Shown here one piece after another: positions 8,158 to 53,740 of a stretch of 64,000 bases of DNA. Source of the DNA: Polyangiales bacterium (lineage in GTDB: Bacteria > Myxococcota_A > Polyangia > Polyangiales > JADJQN01); the NCBI GenBank assembly GCA_964202905.1, contig CAXNJO010000009.1, forward strand, positions 32,001 to 96,000, read 5' to 3'. The position numbers and the translations under genes are program-made. Within the stretch, counting starts at the first letter, position 1. Each line of letters begins with the position of its first letter. Under the pieces are notes generated by a model that was not told the DNA's origin, ran no database searches, and worked only from the letters and a program-made list of their open reading frames with translations.

Positions 8158-10347
8158 CTACTGCACCGTCGACTCGGCGCGGTTCACGATGCGCGGCGTC
8201 AAGAAGATCAGCAGCTCGCTGCGCTCGTCCCGGACGCGGCGCCGCTGGAACAGCAGGCCGAGGATCGGGATGTCGCCGAGCACGGGGATCTGGTCGCGGT
8301 TGCGGCCCGCGGTGCGCGTGTAGATGCCGCCGATGACGGCCGTGTGCCCGTCCTCGACGAGCAGCTCCGTCTCCGCCTCGCGCTTGAGGATGGTGGGGTC
8401 GCCTCGGACCGAGGTGCGCGAGAAATCGGGCTCGTCGCGCGTGATCTTCACGTGCATCGAGACCGAGCCGTCGCTCGTGACGTGCGGGCGCACGCGGAGT
8501 TCGAGTTTCGCTTCCTGGAAGGCGGTCTGCACGCCCTGCGCGCTCACCTGCGAGTACGGGATCAGGGTCCCCTGCGCGATGTGCGCCTCGTGGTTGTCGA
8601 GCGTCAGGATCCGCGGACTCGACACGATGCGCAGGTTTCCGTTCGCCTCGGCCGCCGAGAGGCGGACGGCGAGGTTCACGTTGCCCCCCACCGATCCGAG
8701 CGAGACGCCGATGGCGCCACCCGCGCCGGCACCGACCGCCGCCGGCAGGTTCACGGCGAAGTTCGAGGGCAGGATGGGCGCACCGGTGAAGGGCGAGAGA
8801 CCCGCCGTCTGCGTCTGGGCATCGTAGGCACCGCCCGCGACGCCGATCGTCGACGGGAACGTGAGCCCCGTCGGGTTGCCCGTGGAGGCGCCCGCCGTGA
8901 CGTCACCGCCCCACTGGATGCCGACGTCGCGGAGGTACTGGCTCGTCGCCTCGACGATGCGCGCCTCGACGAGCACCTGCGGGGTCTGCGTGTCGAGCGT
9001 GCGCACGAGCTCCTCGACGTCGTCGAGGTTCTCGACGATGTCGCGGACGATGAGCACGTTCGTGCGCTCGTCGACCGAGACGTTGCCGCGTGACGAGAGC
9101 AGGTCGCGGACGCGCGGCTGGAGATTGGTCGCGCTCGCGTAGCTCACCGGGACGATCCGCGTCTCGAGCGGCGCGAGATCGACGTTCTGCTTGCGACGGG
9201 CGAGCGCGAGCTCGCGCTCCTTCTCGAGCGTCGTCAGCAACGCGACGCGGATGAGGTTGCCGCGGCGCACCATGCCGAGCCCCTTGGCCTGGAGGATGAC
9301 GTCGAGCGCCTGATCCCAGGGGACGTTGCGCATCCGGATCGTGACCGACCCCGCGACGTCGTCGCTCGTGATGATGTTGACACCGCCGACCTCCGCGAGG
9401 AGCCGCAGGATGTTGTGGATGTCTGCGTCCTTGAAGTCGAGATCGATGCGACGCCCCGAGAAGCGCTGCCCGCCGCGCACATCGCGGACCTGCAGCGCGA
9501 CGTCGCTGAGGAACCCAGCGACCTCGGCCGTGTCGCCCTCTCCCTCGTCCGCTGCGTCGTCCGACACGCGCTCGCGCGCCACCGTGCGCGAACGCGTCCG
9601 GCGCTCGGCGTGCGGGTCCGCCGCGAAGAGCCACACGACGCGGTTGCCCTCGCGGATCGCGGTCGCCGTCGCGCCCGCCTGCTGGTCGGCGTCGAGGATC
9701 ACGCGCCCGGCGCCGCGCGAGATGCGCAGCCCGCGCAGCGCGCTCGCCGCATCGCCGCTCAGCTGCGCGGGGACGTCCTCGGAGAGCGACGCGCCGGGCA
9801 ACTCGAGACGCGCGCGACCGTGGCCGGTCGGCACGACGCGGAAGTCCGAGGGCCGGTCGAGCTGCACGATCACCCGCTCGCGCCCGTCGCGGCGCTCGAT
9901 CGAGACGCCTCGTACGGTGCTCGGGCCGCTCACCGCCGGGCTCTCGCCCTCGGCCGCGACCGCCTCGAGGGGCTCGAAGGACACGATGATGCGCCCGCGC
10001 TCGACCCGCGCCCGGTACGCGGCGGGGCGCGCGAGGGCGACCTCGATCCGCACGCCGCGCGCCGTCGTGCTCGCGGTCGTCCGCGCGACGAGCGGGCTCG
10101 AGCCGGCGACGCTCGCCCCGTCGGGGAGCGAGGCGCCGCTCACGTCGAGCACGACGGTCAGCCCGCCGTCCCGAGCACGCACCGCGTAGGACGGCTCCTC
10201 GAAATCGCCGCGAACGACGAGCTCCGCGTGCCCGTCGCCGGACTCGAGGGCGACTCCCACTGCCATTCTCTCGGGGCTCTGAGCGTGGGCCGTAGCCGCA
10301 AGGCCGAGCATGACGCCGAGCGCCAAGCGGCCAATTCGATCGCGCAT
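8158..10347 (-). CDS. pilQ: Type IV pilus secretin PilQ with N-terminal AMIN-like domains
   Basis: AGGAG SD 7 nt before the ATG at 10347; signal peptide ending AHA-Q; IDLDFKDADIHNILRLLA, VPWDQALD, QVLVEARIVEA, IPVLGDIPILGLLF and ELLIFLTPRI secretin motifs. Confidence 0.95.
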   Translation of the reverse strand: MRDRIGRLALGVMLGLAATAHAQSPERMAVGVALESGDGHAELVVRGDFEEPSYAVRARDGGLTVVLDVSGASLPDGASVAGSSPLVARTTASTTARGVRIEVALARPAAYRARVERGRIIVSFEPLEAVAAEGESPAVSGPSTVRGVSIERRDGRERVIVQLDRPSDFRVVPTGHGRARLELPGASLSEDVPAQLSGDAASALRGLRISRGAGRVILDADQQAGATATAIREGNRVVWLFAADPHAERRTRSRTVARERVSDDAADEGEGDTAEVAGFLSDVALQVRDVRGGQRFSGRRIDLDFKDADIHNILRLLAEVGGVNIITSDDVAGSVTIRMRNVPWDQALDVILQAKGLGMVRRGNLIRVALLTTLEKERELALARRKQNVDLAPLETRIVPVSYASATNLQPRVRDLLSSRGNVSVDERTNVLIVRDIVENLDDVEELVRTLDTQTPQVLVEARIVEATSQYLRDVGIQWGGDVTAGASTGNPTGLTFPSTIGVAGGAYDAQTQTAGLSPFTGAPILPSNFAVNLPAAVGAGAGGAIGVSLGSVGGNVNLAVRLSAAEANGNLRIVSSPRILTLDNHEAHIAQGTLIPYSQVSAQGVQTAFQEAKLELRVRPHVTSDGSVSMHVKITRDEPDFSRTSVRGDPTILKREAETELLVEDGHTAVIGGIYTRTAGRNRDQIPVLGDIPILGLLFQRRRVRDERSELLIFLTPRIVNRAESTVQ

Positions 10348-10435
10348 GTTCATCTCCTGGTCAACTGCTTCGGGGCCATCATCGACCGGCTCTCGGCGTG
10401 GACGCAAAAAAGCGGTTCGTGGTACCCCGTCGCCC

Positions 10436-12376
10436 ATGACCACCGCACGCGGCTGGAAGGCCAAGCTCCGCTATCGCGCCGACGAGTTCCTCGGCGGGGG
10501 CGCGGGCAAACAGCTCGCGTTCCTCTTCGCTCTCACCTGCCTGCTCGTCGCGGGGTTCACCGGTCTCGCCGCGCTCGCGTCGCGCACGGCGCCTGAGCTG
10601 CACATCGCGGACGGGGACGTCGTCGATCAGGCCTGGTGGTACTTCACCCGCCTCATCGACGCCGGCACGATGGGCGGCGACACCGGCACCGTGAACCGGG
10701 TCGTGTCCACCGCCGCGACGATCCTCGGCGTGGTGGTCGCCGGCCTCCTCATCTCGTCGCTCGCGGGGAACTTCCAAGAGCGGCTCGAGGCCATCAAGCA
10801 GGGCGGATCTCCCGTCATGGAAGAGGGCCATTTCCTCATCCTCGGCTGGTCCGAGAAGATCTTCCCGGTGATCGATCAGCTCGCGGAGGCCTACGCCGGC
10901 GAGTCGCTGGTCTGCGTGGTGCTGGCAGAGCAGGACAAACTCGAGATGGAGGCCGCGCTCCGCGACAAGGTCGTGAACACCTCGCGCGTGAAGCTCGTCG
11001 TTCGCTCGGGGAGCAGCGTCTCGCTGAACGACCTCGAGCGCGTGTCCTTCGCCGAGGCGCGCGCGGTCGTCGTCCTCGTCGATCAGCGGGACGTCGAGGA
11101 TCCGAACCGCGCCGACGGGCGGATCATCAAGACGCTCCTCGCCCTCTACAACCACCCGCAGACCCGCGGCCATGCGCGTCCGCCGCGCGTCACCGCCGAG
11201 GTGATGCTCGCAGAGAACCAGGAGATCGCGCTCATCGCCTCCAACGGGCGCGCGCAGGTCGTCAAGACGAACGAGCTCATCTCGAAGATCCTGCTGCAGA
11301 CATCCCGCATCGCGGGCCTCTCGCTCGTGTACGACGAGCTGCTCCGCTTCGAGGGCAACGAGATCCACTACAAGCGCGTGCCGCAGGTCGTCGGTCGGCG
11401 CTTCGCGGACGTGCTCCTCGACTTCCCGAACGGCCTCGTCGTCGGCACCGCGCGCAGCGATGGATCCGGCCACCGGCTCAACCCTCCCCCCGACACCGTG
11501 ATCCAGGCCGAGGACGAGCTGCTCATCCTCGCCGAGGACGCGGACATCCGGTACGCCCCCTACGCGGGGCCGCTGCGCTTCGACGCGCTGCCGCGGCTCG
11601 AGGCGGCGGCGCGGCGGCCCGTCGAGCACATGCTCGTCCTCGGGTGGAACGAGAAGGTCTTCCCGATTCTCCGTGAGTTCGACAGCTACGTCGGCGCGGG
11701 CTCGACGCTCACGCTCGTGAACTCGCTGCCCGAGGCGGACCGGCTCGCTCGGCTCGCCGAGAACGTCGGCGCGCTCGCGAACGTGTCGGTCCGCCACATC
11801 GTCGGGGCGTTCACGAGCCGCACCCTCATGGAGGAGCTGCAACCGCAGCGCTATCCGACAGTCATGGTGCTCGGCGACGCGCTCGACTCGCGGAGCGCGG
11901 AGGACGCCGACACGCGCGCCATCATCGCGCTGCTCCTGCTGCGGGACGCGCGGCGGCGGCACGGCGTGCCTCGGCAGGAGGTCTGCTCGGAGATCCTCGA
12001 TCCCAAGAACCGTGAGCTCGCTGCGACGACGGAGATCAACGACATCGTCATCAGCAACGAGATGGTGTCGATGGTGCTCGCGCAGATCACGTACGAGCCG
12101 CGCGTGCGCGCCGTCCTCGAAGACCTGTTCCAGTCCGACGGCAGCGAGATCTACCTGAAGCCCCTCGAACTCTACGTGCCGCCCGGGCAGACCACGACGG
12201 TCGAGTACCTGGCGCTCGCGGCGCACGCGCGCGGCGAGGTGCTGATGGGCGTCCAGCGCTTCACCGACGACGCCTCGAAGCGCTTCGGGCTCGCACTGAA
12301 CCCGAAGGACCGCGGCGCGGCCTTCACCCCCGGCCCGAGCGACCGGGTCATCGTCCTCGCCGAGGACGATGGCTGA
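10436..12376 (+). CDS. CASTOR/POLLUX (DMI1)-like ion channel with two RCK domains
   Basis: TM helix, pore helix and filter WWYFTRLIDAGTMGGD, second TM helix, GHFLILGWS (RCK1), YDELLRFEGNEI, HMLVLGWN (RCK2) and DLFQSDGSEIYLKP. Confidence 0.85.
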   Translation: MTTARGWKAKLRYRADEFLGGGAGKQLAFLFALTCLLVAGFTGLAALASRTAPELHIADGDVVDQAWWYFTRLIDAGTMGGDTGTVNRVVSTAATILGVVVAGLLISSLAGNFQERLEAIKQGGSPVMEEGHFLILGWSEKIFPVIDQLAEAYAGESLVCVVLAEQDKLEMEAALRDKVVNTSRVKLVVRSGSSVSLNDLERVSFAEARAVVVLVDQRDVEDPNRADGRIIKTLLALYNHPQTRGHARPPRVTAEVMLAENQEIALIASNGRAQVVKTNELISKILLQTSRIAGLSLVYDELLRFEGNEIHYKRVPQVVGRRFADVLLDFPNGLVVGTARSDGSGHRLNPPPDTVIQAEDELLILAEDADIRYAPYAGPLRFDALPRLEAAARRPVEHMLVLGWNEKVFPILREFDSYVGAGSTLTLVNSLPEADRLARLAENVGALANVSVRHIVGAFTSRTLMEELQPQRYPTVMVLGDALDSRSAEDADTRAIIALLLLRDARRRHGVPRQEVCSEILDPKNRELAATTEINDIVISNEMVSMVLAQITYEPRVRAVLEDLFQSDGSEIYLKPLELYVPPGQTTTVEYLALAAHARGEVLMGVQRFTDDASKRFGLALNPKDRGAAFTPGPSDRVIVLAEDDG

Positions 12377-12439
12377 CGCGTCGAGCCCCGCGCAGCCCGC
12401 GCACCTCGGGCAGCGCGGAGCGACTCGCTGAATGGCGAT

Positions 12440-13039
12440 TCAGCGCTGCGGCAGCTCGTTCGGGTCGTGCAGCGGCAGCACCCGCGTGAGCGGCGGACGG
12501 TTCGGCGCCGTCGGGTCCTCGCGGGTGAGGACCACCTCTCCATCGCGGATCCGGTCGACGCGCCAGTTGAGAACGACGGAGATGCCATCCTCACCACCGG
12601 TCTGGACCGTCTCGCCGCGCCCGATGTAGTCGCCGCGCTCGACCGCGTAACCCACGCGCGCGCCGTCGAGGAACATCGCGCGCGGGTTCGCGACCCCGCT
12701 GACGATGGCGATGAGTTGCAACTCATCGATGCCCATCGTCGGCATGATCACGGTGCGCTGCGGGGCGTCGAGCGGACGCGCGCGGAACATCTTCGCGAAG
12801 CTGCGGAAGGGGTCGCGGTTGACGTTGGATTCGACGAAGTCGTCGTCCTGAAAGCGGGGACCCGCCGTGCCGGCGTCGACCCCAGCGTCGACCGGCGCGG
12901 CTGGTGTCCCGCCCGCGGGTGCCGTGCCCCCGGCGGGCGGAGGCGGCGGGGGGCCCGCCTGATAGTCGGGCTCGCAGCCCGCACCGAGGAGCGCGACCGC
13001 GACGAGCAGCACGGAGAGGTTCGCGGGGGTACGCATCAC
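12440..13039 (-). CDS. pilP: Type IV pilus lipoprotein PilP
   Basis: Lipobox LGAG-C; RDPFRSF; LQLIAIVSG...RAMFLD...GYAVERGDYIG; position after pilO. Confidence 0.9.
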   Translation of the reverse strand: MMRTPANLSVLLVAVALLGAGCEPDYQAGPPPPPPAGGTAPAGGTPAAPVDAGVDAGTAGPRFQDDDFVESNVNRDPFRSFAKMFRARPLDAPQRTVIMPTMGIDELQLIAIVSGVANPRAMFLDGARVGYAVERGDYIGRGETVQTGGEDGISVVLNWRVDRIRDGEVVLTREDPTAPNRPPLTRVLPLHDPNELPQR

Positions 13040-13656
13040 TGGGCTCCTGCCGCAGCGGGGGCTGCGGGCGCAGCGGGGGGCGTCGGCAGGCGGAACGTCG
13101 TGGCGAGCACGGCGACCTTCAGCAAGACGTCCTCCCCGGCGACGGCCGGGTCGGTGAGCCGGACGTTCTCCATGCTGATCGCGCGGTCGAGCTGGCTCAC
13201 GTTGAAGAAGAACTTCGCGACCTGGTGGTAACGCCCGGAAAACGCGAGGGAGACGGGGATCTTCACGTACTGCGGCTCGGCCTCGTCCGGCCGCGGCTCG
13301 ACCAGCTCGAGGCGCAAGCCGCTCAGCTCCGCGAGGCGGTTGAGGTCTTGGAGGAAGGACGGGATCTCGGCGCGCTCGGGGAGGGTGCGCTTGTTCTGGC
13401 GGTCGATGGCGGCGCGGCCGTCGAGCTCGGCGCGCACCCGCAGGTACTCGCGCTGCCGCTCCTCGGCCTGCGCGAGCTGCTGCCGCAGCTGCATGTTCGT
13501 GCCGTCCGCCTCCTCGATCTCCGTGACGAGCGGCGTGTGCAGCGCGAGGTAGTAGACGAGGCCGATGATCGCCCCGAGCAGGATGCCGAGGAAGACCTTG
13601 GCCGCAGCGGGGAGCGCGCCGAACGACTGCGCTTGCTTCTTGGCGGGCGGGGCCAT
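13036..13656 (-). CDS. pilO: Type IV pilus alignment protein PilO
   Basis: N-terminal TM, coiled coil, LPERAEIPSFL, YVKIPVSLAFSGRYHQVAKFF. Confidence 0.93.
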   Translation of the reverse strand: MAPPAKKQAQSFGALPAAAKVFLGILLGAIIGLVYYLALHTPLVTEIEEADGTNMQLRQQLAQAEERQREYLRVRAELDGRAAIDRQNKRTLPERAEIPSFLQDLNRLAELSGLRLELVEPRPDEAEPQYVKIPVSLAFSGRYHQVAKFFFNVSQLDRAISMENVRLTDPAVAGEDVLLKVAVLATTFRLPTPPAAPAAPAAAGAQ

Positions 13657-14321
13657 CAGTAGATCACCTTGCAGGTCAGCTCGAAGCCGATGAGCGAGAG
13701 CTGCGTCTCGGGGTCGACGGCGGCCTGGGTGCGCTGGAGCGTCACCTCCTCGAACATGTCGGAGAGCGCGAGTCGCGCGAGGAACTCGGCCACGTCTTCA
13801 TTCGTCTTGCCGACGCCCTTGATGTGGCAGGAGCGGTGCTCCTCCTCGAACTGCGAGATCCACAGGCGACGCGAGTCCCAGCCCGCGTTGTAGCCGGCGA
13901 GCGGATTCTCGCGGCGGATCTCGTCGAGCCGCTGCGGGTCGATCGTCGGGCCGCCACGGGAACCCTCGCTGAGGATCTTCGCGATCTCCATGAGGACGCG
14001 CGTCGGACCGAGCTGCGCGCGCTGCAACTCGCCGACGACGCGCTCGAGCTCTCGACTCTGGTTGAGGCGCCCCTGCAGCTCCTCGAGCATCGCGCTGTTG
14101 GCTTGCGCGTCGCTGATCTGGCGCCGGAGGTCGGCGTTGACCTGGAGTTTCTCCTCGAGGACGCCGCGGTCGATCACGTAGAGCGCCAGGAGGGCGCCGC
14201 CGGTCACGAGCGCGATGAAGGCGTAGGCGACGAACCACGCTTGCCCACCGGCGCTCGACGAGGAGGCCGCGGCGCCCTTCGCGCCGCGCTTCTGCCCGGG
14301 AAGGAGGTTGATGCGGATCAC
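13656..14321 (-). CDS. pilN: Type IV pilus alignment protein PilN
   Basis: GTG start overlapping the pilM stop; N-terminal IRINLLP motif, TM helix and coiled coil. Confidence 0.92.
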   Translation of the reverse strand: MIRINLLPGQKRGAKGAAASSSSAGGQAWFVAYAFIALVTGGALLALYVIDRGVLEEKLQVNADLRRQISDAQANSAMLEELQGRLNQSRELERVVGELQRAQLGPTRVLMEIAKILSEGSRGGPTIDPQRLDEIRRENPLAGYNAGWDSRRLWISQFEEEHRSCHIKGVGKTNEDVAEFLARLALSDMFEEVTLQRTQAAVDPETQLSLIGFELTCKVIY

Positions 14322-15373
14322 GACGTCTGCTCCCGATCCTTGCGGAGCGCGAGCCCGCACGCGACCACGGCCTGAAGCTCGCGGCCCCCGAACAAGAGCG
14401 CGTCGACGCGCTTCGGGTCGGGCGTCGCGACCCGTGTCACGTCGAGGGTCTCGACGGGCACACGCGCGCGGCGCGCGACCGAGTCACGGAGCGCCGCGAC
14501 GTTCGCCGTGCCGCCCGAGACGACGATGCGATCGACGTCCCGATCGCCGCTCGTCGCGAGGTAGAAATCGAGGGAGCGCTGGATCTCGCCGGCGAGCCCC
14601 TCGACCGCCTGCCCGATGATCTCCGGCACTTCCTTCGGCACGAGGCCGCGCGCGCCGCCGCACTTGAAGGCCTCGGCCTCTTCCTGCGAGATGTTGAGGC
14701 GGCGCTGGATCTCCTCGGTGATCGCGTTGCCACCGTTGGCGATGTCACGCGTGAACGCCGTCGCCCCCGCGGAGAGGATGTTGAGCGTCGTGAGGGAGGC
14801 GCCGACATGCAGGAGCACCACCGTCTGCCCCGGCTGCGGCGCACCGAACGCGACCTCGAAGCAGTTCTGCACGGCGAAGGCGTCGAGGTCGACGACGCGC
14901 GGCTTGAGCTTCGCCTGGACCGCGAGGTTCGTGAGGTCGGTCAACTCCTCTTTCTTCGCGGCGACGAGCAGCACGTCCATCTGCCCCTGCGCGGCCCGCT
15001 GCGTGAGGATCTGGTAATCGATCTGCACATCCGACAACTCGAACGGGATGTGCTGTTCGGCCTCCCAGCCGATCTGCTCGGAGAGCTCATCGGCCGTCAT
15101 CATGGGCATCGTGATCTTCTTGATGATCACGGAGTGCCCGCTGGCGCGGAGCGCGACGTCACGGCGCTTCTGCTTGTGGAAGAGCCTCTCGAGGCCCTCC
15201 ACGATGGCGCCGGCGTTCATCACGTGGCCATCGACCACGGTCTGCGGAGGAAGCGGGTGATAGCCAAAGCGCACGAGTGCGCGCTGGCCCTTACGCTTCT
15301 CTTCGATTTCGCAGACCTTGATCGAGCTCGACCCGATGTCGACCCCGACGAGGTTCTTCCCTTCTGAGGACAT
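14318..15373 (-). CDS. pilM: Type IV pilus actin-like protein PilM
   Basis: VGVDIGSSSIK, WEAEQHIPF, VLLVAAKK, EIQRSLDFY, VSGG. Confidence 0.95.
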   Translation of the reverse strand: MSSEGKNLVGVDIGSSSIKVCEIEEKRKGQRALVRFGYHPLPPQTVVDGHVMNAGAIVEGLERLFHKQKRRDVALRASGHSVIIKKITMPMMTADELSEQIGWEAEQHIPFELSDVQIDYQILTQRAAQGQMDVLLVAAKKEELTDLTNLAVQAKLKPRVVDLDAFAVQNCFEVAFGAPQPGQTVVLLHVGASLTTLNILSAGATAFTRDIANGGNAITEEIQRRLNISQEEAEAFKCGGARGLVPKEVPEIIGQAVEGLAGEIQRSLDFYLATSGDRDVDRIVVSGGTANVAALRDSVARRARVPVETLDVTRVATPDPKRVDALLFGGRELQAVVACGLALRKDREQTS

Positions 15374-24698: not shown

Positions 24699-26183
24699 TC
24701 AGCGCTCGCCCGGCTCGTCGTCGTCCTCGAGGCGGCGCCGGAGGTCGCGCATGTAGTCCCCGGCCCCCGGCGCGATGCTCGGCGCGCGCTTCGGCGACGC
24801 GAGCAGCACGACGGGGTCGCGGCCCGCGTCGCCGTCGTCGAGTTCGAACAATTCGGGGGGCAGCGACGAGCGCCGCGCGAACGGCGCCGCGCCCGGCCCG
24901 TGCGGACGCGGAGCCGCGCGCGCGTCGTCGAAGCGCGCCGCGACGAGCGGCTCGGGCGGGAGACTGTCGAGCAGCGACTCCACGTCGTGGTCGGAGTCGG
25001 TCAGCGCGAGCAGCTCGACGGGTAGGCGCGCCGCCCCCGCGAACGACAACGCGGGAGGCGCGCGGAGCGTGAGCGGGTCGGCGTCGTCGACGCCGGGCGC
25101 GGGCGGCAGCTCGCTCAGCAGCCGCAGATCGTCGAAGAGCGTGTCGTCGTCGAGCTCGAGCGCGACCGGCCTCCCGCTCATCGTCGGCTGGGCCGCGGGC
25201 TCGCGCCAGTTGCCGAGCGCGGGCGGCGAACTCCCGACGTCCACGATGCCCGCGCTCTCCTCGTTCAGGCGCTCGTACGGGAAGACCTGCAACACGTGCC
25301 GCGCGACCGTACGCGGCCCCACGAGGAGGCCGTTGCGCGTGGCGAACTCCTCGAGCGCGAGCGCGAGGTGCGAGGCGCTCGGCGTGCGCTGACCGCGGTC
25401 GCGCTGCAGTGCCTGGAGCACGATGCGCTCGAGGTCGGGCGGGTAGTCCACGACGCGCGTGGAGGGAGGCGCCGCGTCCTGCTCGACGACCTGCGTCATC
25501 ACGTGGACGTCGGTGCCGCGGAAGAGCCGCGCGCCCGTCGTGAGTTCGTAGAGGATGACGCCGAGCGCGAAGACGTCGGCGCGCTTGTCGAGGGGGCGGG
25601 CCCGCACCTGCTCGGGGGCCATGTACGCGAACGTCCCCTTGACGACGCCGGCGTCCGTGTCGCGCCTCGCGGACGTGCGCGCGATGCCGAAGTCGAGCAG
25701 CTTCACGACGCCGTCGCGCGTGACCATGAGGTTCTGCGGGGTGACGTCGCGGTGGACGATGCGCAGCGGGCGCCCGGCCTTGTCGCGGCGCTCGTGCGCG
25801 TGGTGAAGGGCCTCGCAGGCCTGCATCACGATGCCGATCGCGACGGCGAGCGGCATCGGCTGGTGGCTGCGCGCACCGACCACGAGGAGGTCCGAGAGGT
25901 CGTGCCCGTCGACCCACTCGAGCGTGATGAACCAGTGCCCCCCCTCGGCGCCCAGCTCGAAGACCTGCGGGATGTTCGGGTGGCAGAGCTCCGCGAGGAG
26001 CCGCGCCTCGTCCTGGAACATCCGCAATTGCCGGTCGTCGTCCGCCAGATTGCGGAAGATCCGCTTGATGACCACGTCGCGGAAGAAGCCGCCCTCGCCG
26101 CGCTGCCGCGCGAGGAAGATCTCCGCCATGCCGCCCGCGGCCAACTTGCGGAGGAGCTCGTATCTGCCGAAGAGCTGGGTCAT
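24699..26183 (-). CDS. Soluble Hanks-type Ser/Thr protein kinase
   Basis: LAAGGMAEIF, VVIKRI, HRDVTPQN, DFGIA and YMAPE all intact; low-complexity acidic C-terminal tail; no TM helix. Confidence 0.92.
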   Translation of the reverse strand: MTQLFGRYELLRKLAAGGMAEIFLARQRGEGGFFRDVVIKRIFRNLADDDRQLRMFQDEARLLAELCHPNIPQVFELGAEGGHWFITLEWVDGHDLSDLLVVGARSHQPMPLAVAIGIVMQACEALHHAHERRDKAGRPLRIVHRDVTPQNLMVTRDGVVKLLDFGIARTSARRDTDAGVVKGTFAYMAPEQVRARPLDKRADVFALGVILYELTTGARLFRGTDVHVMTQVVEQDAAPPSTRVVDYPPDLERIVLQALQRDRGQRTPSASHLALALEEFATRNGLLVGPRTVARHVLQVFPYERLNEESAGIVDVGSSPPALGNWREPAAQPTMSGRPVALELDDDTLFDDLRLLSELPPAPGVDDADPLTLRAPPALSFAGAARLPVELLALTDSDHDVESLLDSLPPEPLVAARFDDARAAPRPHGPGAAPFARRSSLPPELFELDDGDAGRDPVVLLASPKRAPSIAPGAGDYMRDLRRRLEDDDEPGER

Positions 26184-26359
26184 CGTGGGGGGCGAGCGGA
26201 GGGAGCTCCGCGCGGCGCCGGAGCATAGCGCGGCCGCGACGCGTGGATAGCGCAGACTTCGCGGCGCGCGGGCGCCCGCCGCACCACGGCGTCCGGCGAC
26301 GCCCCGTCGCGGGGGGCGTGCGGCGTGCATCCGAGCGCGCCGTCTCCCGCCTCGCACCC

Positions 26360-26389
26360 TTGAATCGGAGCACCCCGAGCCGTTAGCCT
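26360..26389 (+). promoter_or_regulatory. Putative sigma70 promoter with very short or no leader
   Basis: TTGAAT-N18-TAGCCT ending 9 nt before the ATG at 26399; no SD. Confidence 0.5.
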
Positions 26390-26398
26390 CCGCCCACC

Positions 26399-28381
26399 AT
26401 GACCCTGCCCTCCCCCGACGCTGCGACCCGCGCGCCCGTCACCGCGGGTGCCGTCGTCGGCGGCCGCTTCCGCGTCGAGCACACCGTGAGCGAAGACGCG
26501 CTCGGCGCCGTGCTCGCCGCGACCGACCAGAAGACCGGGAAGATGATCGCGTTGCGCATGCTGCCGCGCGAGTCGCTCGCAGACACGGCGGCCGCGGACT
26601 TCCTCCGCGCCGAGGTCCGCGCGGCCGCGGCGCTGCCACACAAGAACCTCGTCGCGGCCTTTGGGGCCGGGCAGGATCCGCACACGGGCTGGTACGTCGC
26701 CGGCGAGTGGGTCGACGGCGAGTTGCTCTCGCACACCGTCGCGCGGCGCCGCGCGAGCGGGCTCGGCGGCATGTCGCTGCGCGGTGCGATCGAGGTGGTG
26801 CAGCAGATCTGCGCCGCGCTCACGGCCGCGCACACGAAGACGGTCCACGGCGGTGTTCGGCCGAGCGTGGTCTGGGTCGGACGCAGCGGCCGCGCGAAGC
26901 TCGGCGACCTCGGCGTGACGCGCGCCCTGCTGCGCAGCGCGGGCGCGCAGGCGTTCGGCGACTCGGAGCAGGCGTGGCTCGCGCCCGAGGTCAAGGCCGG
27001 CGCGGAGCCGGACGCGCGCAGCGACGTCTTCGGACTCGGAGCGCTGCTCTACGCGATGCTCACGGGCCGCTCGCCGACGGAAGACTTCGTGCCCCCATCG
27101 CAAGCGCACCCGCACGCCGGGGCCGCGCTCGACGAGGTCCTGCTCGCCTGCCTCGCGCCGAGCCCCGCGGGCCGCATCGCGACCACGGAGGACGTGCGCG
27201 CACGACTCGACCCCTTCCTCCTCGACGCGCCCCCCGCGGCGGACGACGACTTCGGAGCCGTCGGCGCGCACAGCGAGCTCGCGATCGACGTCGGCCTCGC
27301 GACCGTGCGCCCGAGCCGCACCGACACCCTCGCCCCACCGGTGCCCGCGATCCCCGGCGCGGCGCGCCTCCCCGACGCGCGCCCGAAGGTCGGGCAGCGC
27401 GTCGCCGCGGGCGAGCAGTTCCGCACCTCGCTCCCCGGCGGCCCCGCGCCGCGAGCGCCCGCGCAGGAACCCGCCCAGGGCCGCGTGTCCTCCGGCGTGG
27501 ACCTCGGCACCTTGCTCGCGCGGATCACGGAGAACGACGCCCCGCGCTGGATGGTCGTCAAGGACAACCTCGATCACGGGCCCTTCTCGGGGCGCGAGCT
27601 GGTGCAGGCGATCCTCAAGGGCGAGGTCCTCGCCGAGCACGGGCTCCTCAACATGGACACGGGCGAGCGCAAGAAGGTGCGCGAGTTCGTCGAGTTCACC
27701 GAGTTCCTCGAGCAGCACCGGTTGCGCAAGACCGAGGCCGATCAGAAGGCCGCGCTCGAGCGCTCGGAGACCGTTCAGAAGGCGGGCAACGCGGCCAAAC
27801 TCCTCGTGGCCCTCGTCGTCCTCGGCGTCGTCGGCCTCGGCGTCGGGATCTTCATCGTCACGCGTCCCGACAAGGCGAACGAGCGCGTCGCCGATGCAAA
27901 CCTCGCCGATCTCTACGAGCGCGGCGAGATCAACATCACCGGCACCGCCGGCATCCTCCCTCCCCCGCCACGCGGCGCGGGACGACGGAGCGGCGGCTCG
28001 GGCCGATCGGGCGGCGGTGGTGGCGGCGGTGGCGGCATGACGTACGAGGAGGCCATGAATCAGGCCGTCAACCTCGGCGATGTCAGCGGCGGCGGCGGCG
28101 GCGGCGAGCGCCAACTCACCCCGAACGACGTCGCGGGCGTGATGAACCGCAACCTCAACGGGCTGTTCTCGTGTGTGAGCGCCGAGCTCCGCAGCGGCGG
28201 CGCGCTCTCGACGGTGCAGATCGACCTCGCCATCGCGGGCAGCGGACAGGTGCTCGGCGCCTCGTCGCGTCAGGGCAGCGGGACCTTTAAGACCTGCATC
28301 GGCAGCCGCGCCCGCGGCATCCGCTTCCCGACCTTCCCCGCGCCGCGCATGGGTGCGCGCTACTCCTTCTCGGTGGACTGA
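26399..28381 (+). CDS. Pseudokinase - GYF_2-like - TM - AgmX/PglI(TonB_C-like) C-terminal domain protein
   Basis: Kinase fold with dead motifs (SEDALG Gly-loop, IALR, HGGVRPSV, DLG; APE and SDVFGLG retained); WMVVKDNLDHGPFS GYF-like motif; TM helix; Gly linker; C-terminal domain with two Cys (FSCV...FKTCI...IRFPTF). Confidence 0.75.
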   Translation: MTLPSPDAATRAPVTAGAVVGGRFRVEHTVSEDALGAVLAATDQKTGKMIALRMLPRESLADTAAADFLRAEVRAAAALPHKNLVAAFGAGQDPHTGWYVAGEWVDGELLSHTVARRRASGLGGMSLRGAIEVVQQICAALTAAHTKTVHGGVRPSVVWVGRSGRAKLGDLGVTRALLRSAGAQAFGDSEQAWLAPEVKAGAEPDARSDVFGLGALLYAMLTGRSPTEDFVPPSQAHPHAGAALDEVLLACLAPSPAGRIATTEDVRARLDPFLLDAPPAADDDFGAVGAHSELAIDVGLATVRPSRTDTLAPPVPAIPGAARLPDARPKVGQRVAAGEQFRTSLPGGPAPRAPAQEPAQGRVSSGVDLGTLLARITENDAPRWMVVKDNLDHGPFSGRELVQAILKGEVLAEHGLLNMDTGERKKVREFVEFTEFLEQHRLRKTEADQKAALERSETVQKAGNAAKLLVALVVLGVVGLGVGIFIVTRPDKANERVADANLADLYERGEINITGTAGILPPPPRGAGRRSGGSGRSGGGGGGGGGMTYEEAMNQAVNLGDVSGGGGGGERQLTPNDVAGVMNRNLNGLFSCVSAELRSGGALSTVQIDLAIAGSGQVLGASSRQGSGTFKTCIGSRARGIRFPTFPAPRMGARYSFSVD

Positions 28382-29172
28382 TGCGCGCGCTCACCGTTGC
28401 GTTGTGGTTCGCGCTCGCCCTCGGCGGTTGTGACGCCGCCATCGCCGGCGGCCTCGACGAGGCGCAGGCCAACGAGATCGTCGTCGCCCTCGACGGGCAG
28501 GGGATCTCGGCGCTGAAGGCGCGCGAAGAGGGCGCGTCGGAGACGCCGACCTTCCGCGTCGACGTCTCGCGCGAGGAGACGGCCCGCGCGCTCACGGCGC
28601 TGCGCACGGCCGAACTGCCACGGGCGCGGGAGCGCGGGATCGAGGAAGTGTTCGGCGCCGGGGGCCTCGTCCCGACGGCGACAGAGGAGCGCGCGCGCTT
28701 CACCGCGGCGCTCTCCGGCGAGCTCGTGCGGACGCTCGAGTCGATCGACGGCGTCCTCGACGCGCGCGTGCATCTCGCGCTCCCCGAGCGCCGCGATCTC
28801 CCGCTCGACGCGCCCCCGGCCCGGCCGCGGGCCTCGGTGCTGATCAAGTACCGCCGCGGGCCGACGCGGCCCTGGGACGACGCCTCGGTGCGCGCGCTCG
28901 TCGCCGGCGCGGTCGATGGCCTCGACGCCGCCGACGTGACGGTCGTCGGTGTGCCTGCGCCCGCGCCTCCGACGGGCGCGCAGGCAGCGCTCGTACGCTT
29001 CGGGCCGATCGCGGTGACTCGTGGCTCGGCCGGCGCGCTGAAGGCGCTCCTCGCCGCTTCGCTCCTGCTGAACGTGGCCGTGACCCTCGGCGCTGCGCTG
29101 TTGTCACGCCGCCGCGCGCGCGCGGCCGCAGCCCCCGACGACGCGGAGGCCACGCCGGTCGCCCCGCGCTGA
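28381..29172 (+). CDS. sctJ: SctJ/YscJ/PrgK-family inner-membrane ring lipoprotein with no partner genes in the window
   Basis: Lipobox LGG-C; GLDEAQANEIVVAL; LVPTATEERARF...ELVRTLESIDGVLDARVHLALP; ASVLIKY; C-terminal TM and basic tail. The ATG overlaps the upstream TGA. Confidence 0.88.
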   Translation: MRALTVALWFALALGGCDAAIAGGLDEAQANEIVVALDGQGISALKAREEGASETPTFRVDVSREETARALTALRTAELPRARERGIEEVFGAGGLVPTATEERARFTAALSGELVRTLESIDGVLDARVHLALPERRDLPLDAPPARPRASVLIKYRRGPTRPWDDASVRALVAGAVDGLDAADVTVVGVPAPAPPTGAQAALVRFGPIAVTRGSAGALKALLAASLLLNVAVTLGAALLSRRRARAAAAPDDAEATPVAPR

Positions 29173-29228
29173 AGACGGCGCTATCGTCGCGCCCGCACGG
29201 CGCACCATGCGCCCCACCGGGAGTTCCC

Positions 29229-30170
29229 ATGCGCGTCCTGATCACCGGCGGCGCCGGCTTCATCGGCAGCCACATCGCAGAGCACGCCCTCGCCCGAGGG
29301 CACGAGGTCCTCGTCGTCGACGACCTCTCGAGCGGTCGCCGCGAGAACGTGCCCCACGGCGCCACGCTCGAGGTGCTCGACGTCCGCCGCGTCGACGACG
29401 TGCGCGCCGTCTTCGAGCGCTTCCGCCCGGAGGCCGTGACCCATCAGGCCGCGCAGGCCTCGGTCGCGGTGAGCATGCGCGAGCCGGTGCGCGACGCCGA
29501 CGTGAACGTGCTCGGCGGGCTCTCGGTGCTCGAGGCCTGCCGCGCGGTCGGCACGGCGCGCTTCATCTTCGCGAGCACCGGGGGCGCGATCTACGGCGAG
29601 GTCCCCGAGGGCGCGCGCGCGACGGAAGCGACAACGCCCGGGCCACTCAGCCCGTACGGCGCCGCGAAGCTCGCCCTCGAAGGCTACCTGCCGACGTGGG
29701 CGCACCACTTCGGGCTCGCGCCGACGGTGCTCCGCTACGCGAACGTCTACGGCCCGCGTCAGGATCCGCACGGCGAGGCGGGCGTCGTCGCGATCTTCGC
29801 CGAGCGCGCGCTCCGCGACGAGCCGCTCCGTGTGAACGCGCGGCAAGCCCGCGGCGACGACGGCTGCGTCCGCGACTACGTCTACGTGCGCGACGTCGCG
29901 CGGGCCAACGTCGCCGCGCTCGAGGGAACGCTGGGCGAGCGACTGCTGAACGTGGGCAGCGGCGCGGCGACGACGACGGGCGCCCTCGCCCGCGCCGTGT
30001 GCGCGGCGACCGGCTCGCGCTCAGAGCACGTCCCGAGCGACGTGCGGGCTGGCGACCTCGCGCGGTCCGTGCTCGACCCCTCCCGCTACGAGCGGGCGCT
30101 CGGCCCGACAACCCCCCTCGAGGCGGGGCTCGCCGAGACGCTCGCGTGGTTCCGCGCGCGCTCGCGCTGA
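29229..30170 (+). CDS. NAD-dependent epimerase/dehydratase (GalE-like extended SDR)
   Basis: ITGGAGFIGSH, YGAAK (YxxxK), RYANVYGPRQ, RDYVYV. Confidence 0.92.
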   Translation: MRVLITGGAGFIGSHIAEHALARGHEVLVVDDLSSGRRENVPHGATLEVLDVRRVDDVRAVFERFRPEAVTHQAAQASVAVSMREPVRDADVNVLGGLSVLEACRAVGTARFIFASTGGAIYGEVPEGARATEATTPGPLSPYGAAKLALEGYLPTWAHHFGLAPTVLRYANVYGPRQDPHGEAGVVAIFAERALRDEPLRVNARQARGDDGCVRDYVYVRDVARANVAALEGTLGERLLNVGSGAATTTGALARAVCAATGSRSEHVPSDVRAGDLARSVLDPSRYERALGPTTPLEAGLAETLAWFRARSR

Positions 30171-30240
30171 CGCCTGCGGGAGGCTCGACCCGGTGGCGGC
30201 AACATCACGAAAAGCCCCGGGAAACGGCCCTCCACACGCG

Positions 30241-30270
30241 TTGACATCGCGCGCCGCGTGCTGCTAGCGT
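30241..30270 (+). promoter_or_regulatory. Sigma70 promoter with consensus -35 and extended -10
   Basis: TTGACA-N18-TAGCGT with TG at the extended -10 position. Confidence 0.65.
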
Positions 30271-30319
30271 GCATGCGGCGCGTCGCGCAATGGCCCCTCG
30301 CAACGCTCAGGCCAAGCTC

Positions 30320-30389
30320 CCACGCAGCACGCTTTCCACGCAGCACGCTTTCCACGCAGCACACTTTCCACGCAGCACACTTTCCACGC
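30320..30389. repeat. 16-bp tandem repeat, about 4.4 copies
   Basis: CCACGCAGCACGCTTT x2, CCACGCAGCACACTTT x2, then CCACGC; lies between the promoter and the SD of the 30436 gene. Confidence 0.95.
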
Positions 30390-30435
30390 CCCCCGTCCAC
30401 CACGGCCGGGGTTCGACGCAGGGAGTAACGACGAG

Positions 30436-31233
30436 ATGTCCGAGCAGAAGGAAAGCTCCGTTCTCTTCAACCTCAAGGAGTTGATGGGCCTCGAAGAGGA
30501 CCGCATCAAGACCGAGGACGACGACCGCCGCCGCCGCGAGGAAGACGCGCAGCGGAAGATCGAGGAAGAAGCGCGGCGCAAGCGCGAAGCCGAGGAAGCG
30601 GCGATCCGCGCAGCGGAAGAGACCCGGCTCGCGGAAGAGCGTCGCGTGCGCGAAGACGCCGAGCGCAAGCAGCGTGAGAAGGAAGAGAGCGAGCTCCGCG
30701 TCCGCCTCGAGGCCGACCAGCGCGCCCGCCAGGCCGAGCAGGAGCGTCTCCTCACGCACGAGCGCGAGATGCAGACGATCGCCGCGCAGAAGAAGAAGGG
30801 CGGCGTGCACCCCGCGATTCTTGCGGTCGCCGCCTTGCTCTTCATCGGTGTCGGCGCCGGCGTCTACTTCGGCGTCGTCAAGCCTTCGCAGGAGGCCGCC
30901 AAGGAGCAGACGGAGGCCGCTCAGCGCCTCGCCGAAGAGCAGGTGACGCAACGTCGGCGCGCGGAGGAAGAAGCCCAGCGGCAGGCAGGCCTCCTCGAGT
31001 CCGAGCGGCGACGCGCCGCCGACGCAGCACGGCTGCGCGAAGAAGAGATCGCCGCGCAGCGCGCGCAGGCGGAAGCGGCCGAGGGGGCCGCACGCCCCGC
31101 GGGCGGCGCCGTTCGTCGCCCCGCAGGCGGCGGCGGTGGAGGCGGCGGTGGAGGCGGTCGGCGGCCGGCAGACGGCGGTGGCGGCGGCGGCGGGAACTCC
31201 GACGATCCGCTGGGCGGACTGGACGACCTCTGA
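30436..31233 (+). CDS. Bitopic membrane protein with long E/R/K helices on both sides of the TM
   Basis: GGGAG SD; N-terminal [12 protein letters not shown] motif; ~95-aa E/R/K-rich helix; [23 protein letters not shown]; second helix; Gly linker; [10 protein letters not shown] end. Confidence 0.8.
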
Positions 31234-36555: not shown

Positions 36556-40333
<3,778 letters not shown>

Positions 40334-40534
40334 GGGAGTTCCCGGATGAAAAGAAGGGCCCGCGGGGAGGCGGGCGGGGGCGGAGCGTGGCGACCGCTCG
40401 GGGGGCCGTCAACCCCGGGCGCTCGGACGCAGCGCGCCCGGAGACATTCACCCGCCGCGCCGGGCGCACGCGACACACGCCGTCGACGCGCCGCGTCGTC
40501 GCGGTTGCGGGGCCCGGTGCTAAGGCTGCCAGCC

Positions 40535-42243
40535 ATGACATCCCCGACGATCTCCGGCCCGCGCCCGGTGCGCGCCCCGCGCGGCACGACCCTGCGCTGC
40601 CGCGGTTGGCAGCAGGAAGCCGCGCTGCGGATGCTCATGAACAACCTCGATCCCGACGTGGCCGAGCGGCCGGACGACCTCGTCGTCTACGGCGGCACGC
40701 GGCAAGGCCGCGCGCTCGTGGGCCGCGTTCGACGCGATCGTCGGCGACGCTCGAGCAGCTCGACGACGACGAGACGCTGCTCGTGCAGTCGGGCAAGCCC
40801 GTCGGGCGCTTGCCGCACGCACGCCGACGCGCCGCGCGTGCTGCTCGCGAACTCGACTCGATCGTCCCGCACTGGGCGACGTGGCAACGAGTTCCGACGA
40901 CCTCGAGGCCAAGGGGCTGACGATGTACGGCCAGATGACGGCCGGCTCGTGGATCTACATCGGCACGCAGGGCATCTTGCAGGGCACCTACGAGACCTTC
41001 GCCGAGGCGGGGCGGCAGCACTTCTCGGCGGACGGCGTCGCCGGGCCGAAGAACTGGGCGGGGCGCTGGATCCTCTCGGCGGGGCTCGGCGGGATGGGCG
41101 GCGCGCAGCCGCTCGCGGCGACGATGGCGGGCGCGTCGTTCCTCGGCGTCGAGATCGATCCGCAGCGCGCGCAGCGGCGCCTCGAGACGCGCTACGTCGA
41201 TCGGCTCACGCACTCGCTCGACGAGGCGCTCGCGTGGATCCGCGAGGCGTGCGCAGCGCGCGCGGCCGTCTCCGTCGCGCTCGTCGGCAACGCGGCGCAG
41301 GTCTACCCGGAGCTCGTGCGGCGCGGCGTCACGCCGGACTTCGTCACCGAGCAGACGAGCGCGCACGATCCGCTGAACGGTTACGTGCCCTCCGACGTGT
41401 ACGCTCGCCGACGCGCGGGGGCTCGCGCGAGCGCGATCCAGCGCGGCTTCGAGCAGCGCGCGCGCGAGGGCATGGCGGCCGAGGTCAACGCGATGCTCGA
41501 GATGGTGCGGCGCGGCGCGTTCGCGCTGCGACTACGGCAACAACATCCGCGAAGAGGCGCGGCGCGCGGGCGTCGAGCGCGCCTTCGACATCCCGGGCTT
41601 CGTGCCGGCGTACGTCCGGCCGCTCTTCTGCGAGGGCAAGGGGCCCTTCCGCTGGGTCGCGCTCTCGGGCGATCCGGAGGACATCCGCGTCACGGACGCC
41701 GCGATCAAGGAGCTCTTCCCCGCGGACGCCGCCCTCCACCGCTGGCTCGACATGGCCGAAGAGCGCGTCGCCTTCCAGGGGTTGCCCGCGCGCATCTGCT
41801 GGCTCGGCTACGGCGACCGCGCGAGGGCGGGCCTGCGCTTCAACGAGCTGGTGCGCGACGGCAAGGTGAAGGCGCCCATCGTCATCGGCCGCGACCACCT
41901 CGACTGCGGCTCGGTCGCGAGCCCGAACCGCGAGACGGAGGGCATGATCGACGGCTCGGACGCGATCGGCGACTGGCCCGTGCTCAACGCGATGCTCAAC
42001 GTCGCGAACGGCGCCACGTGGGTGAGCATCCACCACGGCGGCGGCGTCGGCATCGGCTACTCGCTGCACGCAGGCGACGTCATCGTCGCCGACGGCACGC
42101 CCGACGCAGCGCGGCGCCTCGAGCGCGTGCTCACCGGCGACCCCGGCATGGGCGTCATCCGGCATGCGGACGCCGGCTACGAGATCGCGATCGAGACGGC
42201 GGCGAAGAAGGGCGTGCACGTGCCGCACCGGACCGCGGGATGA
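40535..42243 (+). CDS. hutU: Urocanate hydratase; many single-base frameshifts, probably assembly errors
   Basis: [82 protein letters not shown] and HHGGGVG are spread over three frames. Confidence 0.93.
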
Positions 42244-52257: not shown

Positions 52258-53740
52258 TCAGGGCGTGAGGGCCCGGCGCGTGCGGACCGAAAGGCGCGGG
52301 TCGACCCACGCCCCGCGCGCGACGGCGGCGCGCACCTCGGCGACGGGGACGGCCACCTCCCCGAGCAGAGCGAGTCGCACGCAGCGCGGCCCCCCGGGCG
52401 CGTCGTCCACCACGAAGACGTCACGCGGCGCGACACGCGTGGCGAGATCCGCGAGCACGAGCGGCGCGAGCCCGTGCGCGACGACGACCGAGGTCCCCGG
52501 GGCGCGGACCGCCCGCGCAGAGACCGAGCGCGCGGCGACGAACGCGGGGTCCGCCCACGCGCGACCGTAGTGGTGCGCGACCGCGACGCCCGTCCCGACG
52601 CTGCCGATCGCGACGAGCGCGACGAGCGTCGCGACGACCGCGCGCGAGGGGCGCGCCCGCAAGACGTGCACGAGCCCGACGAGCCCGCCGACCCAGAAGA
52701 GGTCCCACCGCTCGATGAGCGCGGGCTCGTAGAGATACGGGAACACGAGCGAGACGAGCAGCGCGGCGGCGAGCTCCGGACGCGCGCGCAGCGCGGCCCC
52801 GAGCGCCTGACCGCGCGCGGCGACGAGCTGGACCACGAGGGCGAGCGCGAGCGCGCAGGACACCGCGGGGATCCAGGTGCGCAGCGCCGCGTCGAGCGCC
52901 GGCGTGAGGCGCATCAGGTGCACCGAGGGCGTCAGCGCGATCGCGCGGAGCCCGCCGACGTATTGCTCGAGGCGCGCGGCGGAGCCGAGGGGGGTCGTCG
53001 ACTGCGCGAAGTCCTGGAGCCGCAGCGCCTGCGGGAGAAACGCATGGAGCGCGTTCAGCGCGCCCGTGAAGGGGACGAGGTGCGCGAGGTGATACACGCC
53101 GAGCGCCGTCAGCCCCGCGACGGCGAGCCCGCCTGCGCGCGCGGGATCGCGCCGCGCGACCCACGGCGCGACCGCGAGCGGGAAGAGGAGCACGAGCAGC
53201 GACACGTTCACGAGCATCGCGGCCGCGAGCAGCACGCCGAGCAGGACGCCGCGCCGACGCTCGCCGCGGGCCTCGACGCTGCGCCGCGCGAACAGCGCGA
53301 ACACGCCGAGGACGAGCGGCAGGTAGAGCACGTTGTCTTCGGCGAGCAGGAAGAGCGAGACGAGGCCGGGGCTCCCGATCGTGGACGCCGCGAGCACGAG
53401 CGCCGGTCGCCCGCCCCGAGAGCCCGGCGCGTCGCGCGACGCCGAACACACCGAGCAGGAACGCCGCCGCCCCCGCGGCCGTGAGCCCGACGACCGCCGC
53501 GCGAGGCGTCACGCCCACCGCCATCAGCGCGCGCATGGCGCCGTGGTAGAGCAGGTGACCGTCGAGGTAGAGGTCGGGGCGGTAGCCGCGAATGAACGCG
53601 AGGCGCGCGTACGTGTCCCAATCCCAGAGCCCCACCTCACCGCGCCGGACGAGGACGAGCGCGGCCGTGAGCGCCGCAGAAGCCGCCGCCCAGCCGAGCC
53701 CGGCGAACACGGCGTTCCGTCGTGACGCGGCCACGCTCAC
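52258..53740 (-). CDS. Multi-pass membrane protein, GT-C/DUF2723-like glycosyltransferase; frameshift ~53405
   Basis: GTG start overlapping the upstream TGA; TM1 then acidic loop WDWDTY and GHLLYH; about ten hydrophobic segments; short soluble C-terminal domain. Confidence 0.55.

Follow-up and report, generated by a model that had tools for sequence, protein, structure and literature searches.

In a 64,000-nucleotide stretch of the genome of a Polyangiales bacterium (positions 32,001–96,000 of contig CAXNJO010000009.1, assembly GCA_964202905.1; hereafter, the window), a lone gene for SctJ, the inner-membrane ring lipoprotein of type III secretion systems (T3SSs), overlaps the end of a gene for a bitopic membrane protein that we call the partner. 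Our preferred explanation, to which we assign a probability of roughly one half, is that this SctJ is part of a scattered T3SS without a secretin and that the partner is likely to be an envelope adaptor beside the SctJ ring. The source genome (G000; 5.68 Mb in 19 contigs, 94.5% complete, G+C content around 70–80%) carries a second, injectisome-type core (sctV, sctU, sctR, sctS–sctT, sctN, sctQ and sctL) at seven further loci, besides a flagellar cluster, as found by whole-genome hidden Markov model (HMM) searches. Sites are given by genome and contig, the window being G000:C9:32001-96000.

The sctJ gene and its upstream partner

The two genes and their predicted parts are as follows (window coordinates).

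26399..28381, + strand: partner gene, ATG start, 660 amino acids, bitopic inner-membrane protein (open reading frame (ORF); AlphaFold2 (AF2) model, mean predicted local distance difference test (pLDDT) 81.5)
26447..27268, + strand: cytoplasmic pseudokinase domain with a Hanks-type fold, residues ~17-290 (PF00069, Foldseek, alignment)
27281..27493, + strand: Pro/Ala-rich disordered linker, residues 295-365 (pLDDT <50, sequence)
27503..27688, + strand: GYF-like domain, residues ~369-430 (VIA-align, Foldseek)
27689..27862, + strand: long helix, residues 431-488, ending in a single membrane helix at ~465-488 (DSSP; hydrophobic LLVALVVLGVVGLGVGIFIV)
27863..28030, + strand: periplasmic juxtamembrane motif and Gly-rich disordered linker, residues 489-544 (pLDDT <50; LADLYERG..I.GTAGILP motif)
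28031..28378, + strand: periplasmic TonB/TolA-like C-terminal domain, residues 545-660, with two invariant Cys (NF033768, VIA-align)
28379..28383, + strand: TGATG stop/start overlap of partner and sctJ (sequence read directly)
28381..29172, + strand: sctJ, ATG start, 263 amino acids, T3SS inner-membrane ring lipoprotein (ORF, PF01514, TIGR02544, profile against the PDB)
28381..28431, + strand: lipoprotein signal peptide with lipobox LGGC (Cys17) (sequence)
28432..28980, + strand: periplasmic ring-building region, residues 18-200 (profile positions 3-191 aligned to PrgK 9-194)
29032..29115, + strand: C-terminal membrane helix of SctJ, residues ~218-245, followed by a short basic tail (hydrophobic stretch, by inspection only)

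By homology along its length, the product of 28381-29172 is a true, full-length SctJ ring lipoprotein. It scores 85.3 bits against PF01514 (YscJ_FliF), above the cut-off of 24.4, and aligns end to end with the SctJ model TIGR02544 (E = 2.7e-44, model positions 3-189 of 193), whereas the FliF model reaches only 30.2 bits compared with 151.2 for the SctJ model. Lipobox Cys17 is kept in at least 90% of 45 aligned homologues, and a family profile built from these 45 retrieved PrgK (9.5e-30), MxiJ (2.7e-28) and EscJ (2.4e-20) from the PDB, and then FliF. At the junction, GTGGACTGATGCGC (GAC TGA TG), the TGA of the partner gene (28379-28381) and the ATG of sctJ (28381-28383) share one base. The partner and SctJ are likely to be made together, probably from one mRNA. 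A scan of window positions 26000-30500 for promoters and terminators returned 0 sites of both kinds.

On its sequence and modelled fold, the cytoplasmic head of the partner is a conserved pseudokinase, a dead Hanks kinase. The domain matches PF00069 at 64.9 bits, residues 10-290 are modelled by AF2 at a pLDDT of 95-98, and Foldseek places the head close to PknB, PknA and PknI (E ~1e-17, TMt 0.78-0.87). When 20 members of the partner family were aligned with two canonical kinases encoded in the window, all 20 had Arg (IALRML) in place of the beta3 Lys of VAIK, HGG or HGA in place of HRD, and Val in place of the catalytic Asn, and lacked the GxGxxG glycine loop. The GYF-like domain that follows is most similar to the GYF domain of Myxococcus xanthus GltJ (7z3c; VIA-align Z = 7.0, Foldseek probability 1.00), followed by those of GIGYF1 (Z = 6.9) and Smy2 (Z = 6.4), and its D-H-G-P residues are invariant in 21 partner sequences. 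Beyond the membrane helix, the LADLYERG..I.GTAGILP motif is conserved among the aligned partner sequences, and both Cys of the periplasmic domain are invariant in the same 21. That domain aligns with the TonB C-terminal domain 9dc4_T (VIA Z = 6.0, 82 aligned residues, root-mean-square deviation 2.9) and with TolA (Z = 5.4-5.6); more than 20 TonB, TolA, FusB and HasB chains match it at Z = 4-6 over 75-83 residues, scores that are middling but consistent and cover the whole domain.

The AgmX/PglI tail model NF033768 matches weakly (25 bits, under its cut-off of 40), the equivalog models for GltJ (NF033761) and GltG (NF033760) gave no match at E up to 0.1, the SctD model gave no sequence match in the NCBIfam search, and a PDB search with the partner profile returned a single chance-level row (E = 0.1). 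TonB- and TolA-type transducers couple to ExbBD or TolQR through a conserved polar or His motif in the membrane helix; the membrane-helix columns of the partner contain no conserved His or Ser among the 21 sequences. The homologues of the partner that carry a taxon name are those of Sandaracinaceae, Sandaracinus amylolyticus, and Polyangiales and Myxococcota metagenome-assembled genomes, and the homologue in S. amylolyticus, a cultured organism, is 50% identical.

A scattered injectisome-type core

The whole-genome HMM searches covered FHIPEP, FlhB/SctU, FliP, FliQ, FliR, FliI/SctN, FliMN_C, FliH, SctD and SctC. Outside the window they located the following genes in G000, given here with NCBIfam scores for the Sct model and for its flagellar counterpart.

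C6:7356-9425: sctV, 767.5 versus 667.9 (FlhA), over the cut-off
C3:443 kb: sctU, 336 versus 277
C5:176 kb: sctR, 211.6 versus 174.5, over the cut-off
C3:175-176 kb: sctS–sctT; SctS 93.4 versus 96.3 (FliQ), about equal; SctT 107.9 versus 93.1
C1:470 kb: sctN, 587.7 versus 556.9
C3:528 kb: sctQ, 95.7 versus 48.5
C2:407 kb: sctL-like, 62.6 versus 57.7, with HrpE/YscL the best match

Six of eight proteins scored score higher with the Sct model than with the flagellar one; SctS is about equal, and the FliO-like product encoded beside sctR fits a flagellar model. All nine sct genes are open, full-length frames. The equivalog cut-offs are passed by SctV, SctR and SctS; SctJ, SctU, SctN, SctT and SctQ fall slightly under theirs. 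The source genome has the injectisome core set sctJNQRSTUV, and SctC and SctD were not found: the best whole-genome match to the secretin model TIGR02516 (SctC) reaches 138.8 bits against a cut-off of 238.45 and is the PilQ of the window, and the best match to TIGR02500 (SctD) reaches 31.4 bits against a cut-off of 86, over the FHA part only. The latter is a 321-aa FHA protein in which no membrane helix was seen, and we rejected it as an SctD.

Inside the window, the sct, flagellar and secretin HMMs match only SctJ and the type IV pilus secretin PilQ. A Pfam search of 40 called window genes agrees, with no other sct or flagellar gene; genes other than the two ORFs were called with our own GC3-based script, which is unvalidated as a gene finder, so that their start codons are uncertain. 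The window's sole secretin, an AMIN-domain PilQ, is part of a type IV pilus pilM-N-O-(P)-Q cluster (8158-15373, - strand).

An earlier reading of the window made without database searches (the sequence-only reading) had described a full-length SctJ whose start codon overlaps the stop codon of its neighbour, a pseudokinase–GYF–membrane helix–TonB_C architecture recalling GltJ/AgmX, and the lack of any other sct or flagellar gene in the 64 kb. The first of these was upheld by the PF01514 and TIGR02544 matches and the one-base overlap, the second by alignment, AF2, Foldseek and VIA-align, and the third by the HMM and Pfam searches.

The scattered genes sit among housekeeping genes. sctU overlaps priA (G000:C3:440996-444420), and sctN shares bases at its upstream end with dnaJ and at its downstream end with a lycopene cyclase-like gene (G000:C1:468514-472138); sctT is followed by an unnamed gene and then hpt, and sctV is flanked by an outer-membrane beta-barrel gene and msrA. 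The priA–sctU adjacency recurs at 13 of 28 loci of relatives and the proximity of hpt to sctT at 21 of 29, so that the arrangement of sct and housekeeping genes is, on this comparative evidence, an old one. Relatives with long contigs likewise have widely separated sct genes; in one assembled as a single contig (G040), sctJ lies at 3.46 Mb, sctT at 3.89 Mb and sctV at 3.92 Mb.

A second bitopic protein, of 340 aa, is encoded upstream of sctS–sctT (G000:C3:176988-178010, - strand). Its cytoplasmic part is short and leads through one helix and a spacer rich in Pro and Ala to an AgmX/PglI tail, which at 41.2 bits exceeds the cut-off of the model. A TonB-like protein occupies this position, on the same strand and often directly adjacent, at 13 of 29 relatives' loci. 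With 22 AgmX/PglI-tail matches genome-wide, 15 of them over the cut-off, the presence of such a protein at two of eight sct loci suggests more than chance, by a rough argument rather than a formal test.

The flagellar cluster (G000:C3:765000-791775) encodes FlgB, C, D, E and F; FliE, F, G, I, L, M, N, P, Q and R; FlhA, B and F; a MinD/FlhG-like protein; and FliA. FliF-sized matches also occur in many relatives of the order. From its gene content, the organism is a flagellated Polyangiales myxobacterium; myxobacteria are described in PMC10196010 as usually non-flagellar movers. In divergent orientation to the injectisome-type sctR, and around 700 nt away from it, lies a FliO-like gene (TIGR03500, 60.5 bits, over the cut-off; G000:C5:177867-178250, + strand); FliO proteins normally belong to flagella.

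Conservation of the pair across Polyangiales

Two samples were compared: 40 genomes of relatives from the same order, from which 29 SctJ loci were fetched, and 341 stretches in species-representative genomes that encode a relative of the partner, of which the best 80 were analysed. The two locus sets share genomes, and the relatives are non-independent. The partner lies directly upstream of sctJ on the same strand at 23 of the 29 SctJ loci, and three of the six misses are at contig ends. Conversely, SctJ follows less than 400 nt downstream at 57 of the 80 partner loci and 1.4-2.1 kb downstream at 5; a contig edge intervenes at 4, and no SctJ is found at 14. The distance between the genes, a rough estimate over 79 rows drawn from the two overlapping locus sets, is <0 nt in 17, 0-30 nt in 36, 31-120 nt in 17 and >120 nt in 9. 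The kinase-like head is present at 76/80 partner loci, and strong full-length matches to the partner profile (>290 bits) were found only within the order.

SctJ also follows the export apparatus. Among the 40 relatives, 25 have both SctJ and SctT, 8 have neither, 4 have SctJ only and 3 have SctT only, and two of these last three are just 70-79% complete. Five genomes without a strong SctU match each have one FHIPEP gene. Some SctJ-like matches contain an in-frame TGA (G023:C141:4447-5145, G036:C95:4437-4919, G025:C1:367068-367813, G018:C191:4864-5532 and G027:C79:19158-19643); these five may be pseudogenes or assembly errors.

Other neighbours recur less regularly. The 265-aa product of window positions 30436-31233 (+ strand; unk265) matches no Pfam family and combines a highly charged region resembling a coiled coil with a single hydrophobic helix and a tail rich in Gly; together with pyrF and spoU it lies downstream of the pair position at 26/80 loci, some of which are without an adjacent sctJ and without a genomic FHIPEP match. 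An Mla/Mce-type ATP-binding cassette operon (mlaF-E-E-F-D) follows sctJ or the partner at 18/80 loci, including that of a relative of the same genus (L105), in which an epimerase gene lies between two mlaE genes. In the source genome the operon is missing at the locus and only the epimerase gene (29229-30170) remains. Given these 18/80 loci and this absence, we rejected the Mla-like operon as an obligate partner. A canonical Ser/Thr kinase gene (24699-26183, - strand) is transcribed divergently from the pseudokinase gene; we also rejected it as a conserved third partner, because a divergently oriented kinase gene lies upstream at only 6/80 loci, two of them encoding products of 67-75% identity and the other four of 35-43%.

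A possible envelope adaptor beside the SctJ ring

In the explanation that we prefer, the partner, with its dead kinase, GYF domain, single helix and TonB/TolA-like domain, would act as an envelope adaptor beside the SctJ ring and would physically contact it. There it would take the topological place of SctD, which was not found, having an SctD-like topology and a different ancestry. By analogy with the tails of TonB, TolA and GltJ, the periplasmic domain might reach a partner in the outer membrane or cell wall. The dead kinase and GYF head could in turn recruit cytoplasmic partners, much as the GYF domain of GltJ binds a proline-rich sequence.

Several observations weigh against this explanation. 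At the level of SctJ itself, the TIGR02544 score lies 10.8 bits under the NCBI equivalog cut-off of 161.95. Because priA–sctU and dnaJ–sctN overlap as well, tight coupling is unspecific in this lineage, and an overlap of stop and start codons counts for little as evidence that two genes share a function. Moreover, because the periplasmic domain is modelled as TonB-like rather than as a ring-building motif, the partner is not, on that structural comparison, an SctD homologue. The partner and the secretion genes also part company in several genomes. Family f9 keeps strong full-length partner homologues in 8/8 sampled genomes (E = 1e-88 to 1e-115), and for two of its members, G011 and G031 (99-100% complete), no SctJ, SctU or SctT match was obtained. 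Among ten further genomes that have the partner but no adjacent sctJ, and whose completeness is not given, six gave no FHIPEP match; a search of five such genomes gave no YscJ_FliF match in four, three of which are among those six. In the opposite direction, G019 (100% complete) has SctJ and no match to the partner profile, and in family f17 the neighbours of sctJ are a divergent Snf2 helicase gene and, directly downstream, mlaF-mlaE-mlaE-mlaF-mlaD, observations that argue against a dedicated partnership. Because the partner is retained without a T3SS, it has, or can have, a role outside the T3SS, as far as gene content indicates.

In one of the two interpretations offered by the sequence-only reading, SctJ was a dispersed T3SS component and its neighbour a dedicated regulator. 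The first half of this interpretation held up: the core is present at seven other loci, where sctV, sctU, sctR, sctS–sctT, sctN, sctQ and sctL were found by HMM, and SctJ tracks SctT. The word 'dedicated' did not, given that f9 keeps the partner without SctJ, SctU or SctT and that sct genes overlap unrelated genes. That reading would have been undermined by a complete cluster elsewhere lacking just sctJ, together with an unconserved adjacency; we found no such cluster, and the adjacency is conserved at the 23 of 29 SctJ loci and 57 of 80 partner loci given above.

Alternative explanations

These discrepancies lend most weight to an explanation by inherited synteny only, in which the partner is a GltJ-like protein of Polyangiales with a general part in envelope signalling or as an adaptor, functions independently of the T3SS, and merely had sctJ land and stay downstream of it. 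It would account for the partner being kept in T3SS-less genomes, for G019, in which SctJ has no partner, and G035, in which the two lie apart, and for the block partner-sctJ-(mla)-unk265-pyrF-spoU, which is syntenic even where it lacks sctJ. It also fits the behaviour of other sct genes, which overlap unrelated housekeeping genes and keep such adjacencies as sctU–priA and sctT–hpt. Yet the gaps between partner and sctJ are very short or overlapping at most loci and in many families, and a second protein with an AgmX/PglI tail is conserved beside sctS–sctT, an unlikely coincidence for 22 domains in ~5.7 Mb. Mere synteny would also leave the outer position of the inner-membrane ring without a candidate, no SctD having been found. 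We consider this account rather unlikely, although it is the likeliest of the three alternatives.

A repurposed ring scaffold, the other interpretation in the sequence-only reading, fared worse and is less likely than a dispersed T3SS component. In this account, SctJ together with the partner and, in many relatives, an Mla/Mce lipid transporter would make up an envelope-spanning module other than a T3SS. Its appeal lies in the position of sctJ directly upstream of the mla genes in f17, in the overlap of sctJ with mlaF in G019 and in the Mla-like operon downstream at 18/80 partner loci. However, SctJ tracks the T3SS core in the relatives (25 both, 4 SctJ only, 3 SctT only, 8 neither), the source genome has a complete Sct core and keeps the pair intact without an Mla operon at the locus, and the nearest solved relatives of SctJ are injectisome rings; on balance we judge the account improbable.

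In the remaining alternative, which we regard as very improbable, an injectisome or a second flagellum was lost, and the scattered sct genes (with sctJ among them) are its decaying remains, no longer form a machine and have nothing to do with the partner. The scattering itself, the failure of the whole-genome HMMs to find a secretin or SctD, the scores of SctJ, SctU, SctN, SctT and SctQ slightly below NCBI equivalog cut-offs and the in-frame stops in G023, G036, G025, G018 and G027 would all fit decay, but in the source genome all nine genes are open and full-length, SctV, SctR and SctS exceed their cut-offs, and many families of the order retain both the genes and their micro-synteny.

Comparison with known secretion and gliding systems

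The SctJ described here shares with YscJ, PrgK, MxiJ and EscJ full-length homology, the lipobox Cys, the region aligned to PrgK 9-194 and the C-terminal membrane helix. It differs from injectisome SctJ proteins in its setting: it is encoded outside a T3SS cluster, alone with a non-T3SS partner, in a genome in which no SctD or SctC was found. T3SS genes are a textbook case of tight clustering, to which Chlamydiales are the known exception. In this genome, a full injectisome-type core is instead spread over eight loci of one or two genes, with micro-synteny to housekeeping genes across the order and a flagellum besides. Because the core is split among housekeeping loci, cluster-based detection could miss such a scattered T3SS. 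A study based on KEGG and MacSyFinder reports myxobacterial T3SSs mainly in Myxococcales (PMC10196010), and several sctV and sctR copies are noted in Polyangia in PMC11509652. Our search of the open-access literature, supplements excluded, found no description of the partner–sctJ pair or of a scattered Polyangiales T3SS.

The closest counterpart among secretion systems is the needle-less Myxo-type T3SS (T3SS*) of Myxococcus and Cystobacterineae, which is described as having clustered loci with a conserved gene order and no secretin (PMC3459982, PMC12075869). The two have in common a myxobacterial host, the export apparatus, the ATPase, SctJ and the lack of a secretin; unlike the clustered T3SS*, each core gene or the sctS–sctT pair here sits at its own housekeeping locus. 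By this analogy, the T3SS of the source genome is related in kind to the needle-less Myxo systems. The T3SS of Chlamydiales is reported to be functional although encoded at several loci (PMC3459982); it has a few multi-gene clusters and a secretin, whereas here eight loci carry one or two sct genes each.

The partner, in turn, resembles GltJ/AgmX and GltG/PglI of the Agl-Glt gliding machinery of M. xanthus in combining a GYF cytoplasmic head, one helix, a flexible linker and a TonB-C-like domain. GltJ itself, as described in PMC11135422, has a cytosolic GYF head, one helix, a flexible region and a TonB-C domain and works as a trans-envelope adaptor. Where GltJ has a head with a ZnR domain and an MglA-binding linker, the partner has a dead Hanks kinase; its linker is Gly-rich, and its gene lies beside sctJ and not in a glt cluster. 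With SctD (YscD/PrgH), the partner shares a bitopic N-in/C-out topology, a head derived from Ser/Thr phospho-signalling and a gene beside or near sctJ. SctD, however, has an FHA head and three ring-building motifs, whereas the partner has a kinase fold, a TonB-like periplasmic domain and no sequence match.

Considering both TonB-like proteins together, we speculate that Polyangiales rebuilt the T3SS basal body: an injectisome-type export apparatus, its genes atomised into single-gene loci within housekeeping operons and lacking secretin and SctD, would be held in the envelope by TonB-like bitopic proteins, one of them, with the dead-kinase/GYF head, accompanying sctJ and another accompanying sctS–sctT. 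The result would be a hybrid of T3SS and Glt adaptor wired into Ser/Thr-kinase signalling. This is an unlikely and tentative extension of the envelope-adaptor explanation. In the injectisome tree, myxobacterial T3SSs are placed at the root (PMC3459982), so that a version lacking secretin and SctD and having lineage-specific TonB-like partners would bear on how the basal body was originally anchored in the envelope, and the partner and the TonB-like protein upstream of sctS are two concrete candidate accessory proteins.

Other features of the window

Two large ORFs of high GC3, at 63-4508 (+ strand, 1481 aa) and 53737-56049 (- strand, 770 aa), have no Pfam match at E up to 0.001. At 41602-42243 (+ strand), only the C-terminal domain of a urocanase was called (213 aa), and the uncalled stretch 40312-41602 adjoins it. 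The N-terminal part of the urocanase may lie in another frame as the result of a frameshift, or the gene caller may have chosen a late start.

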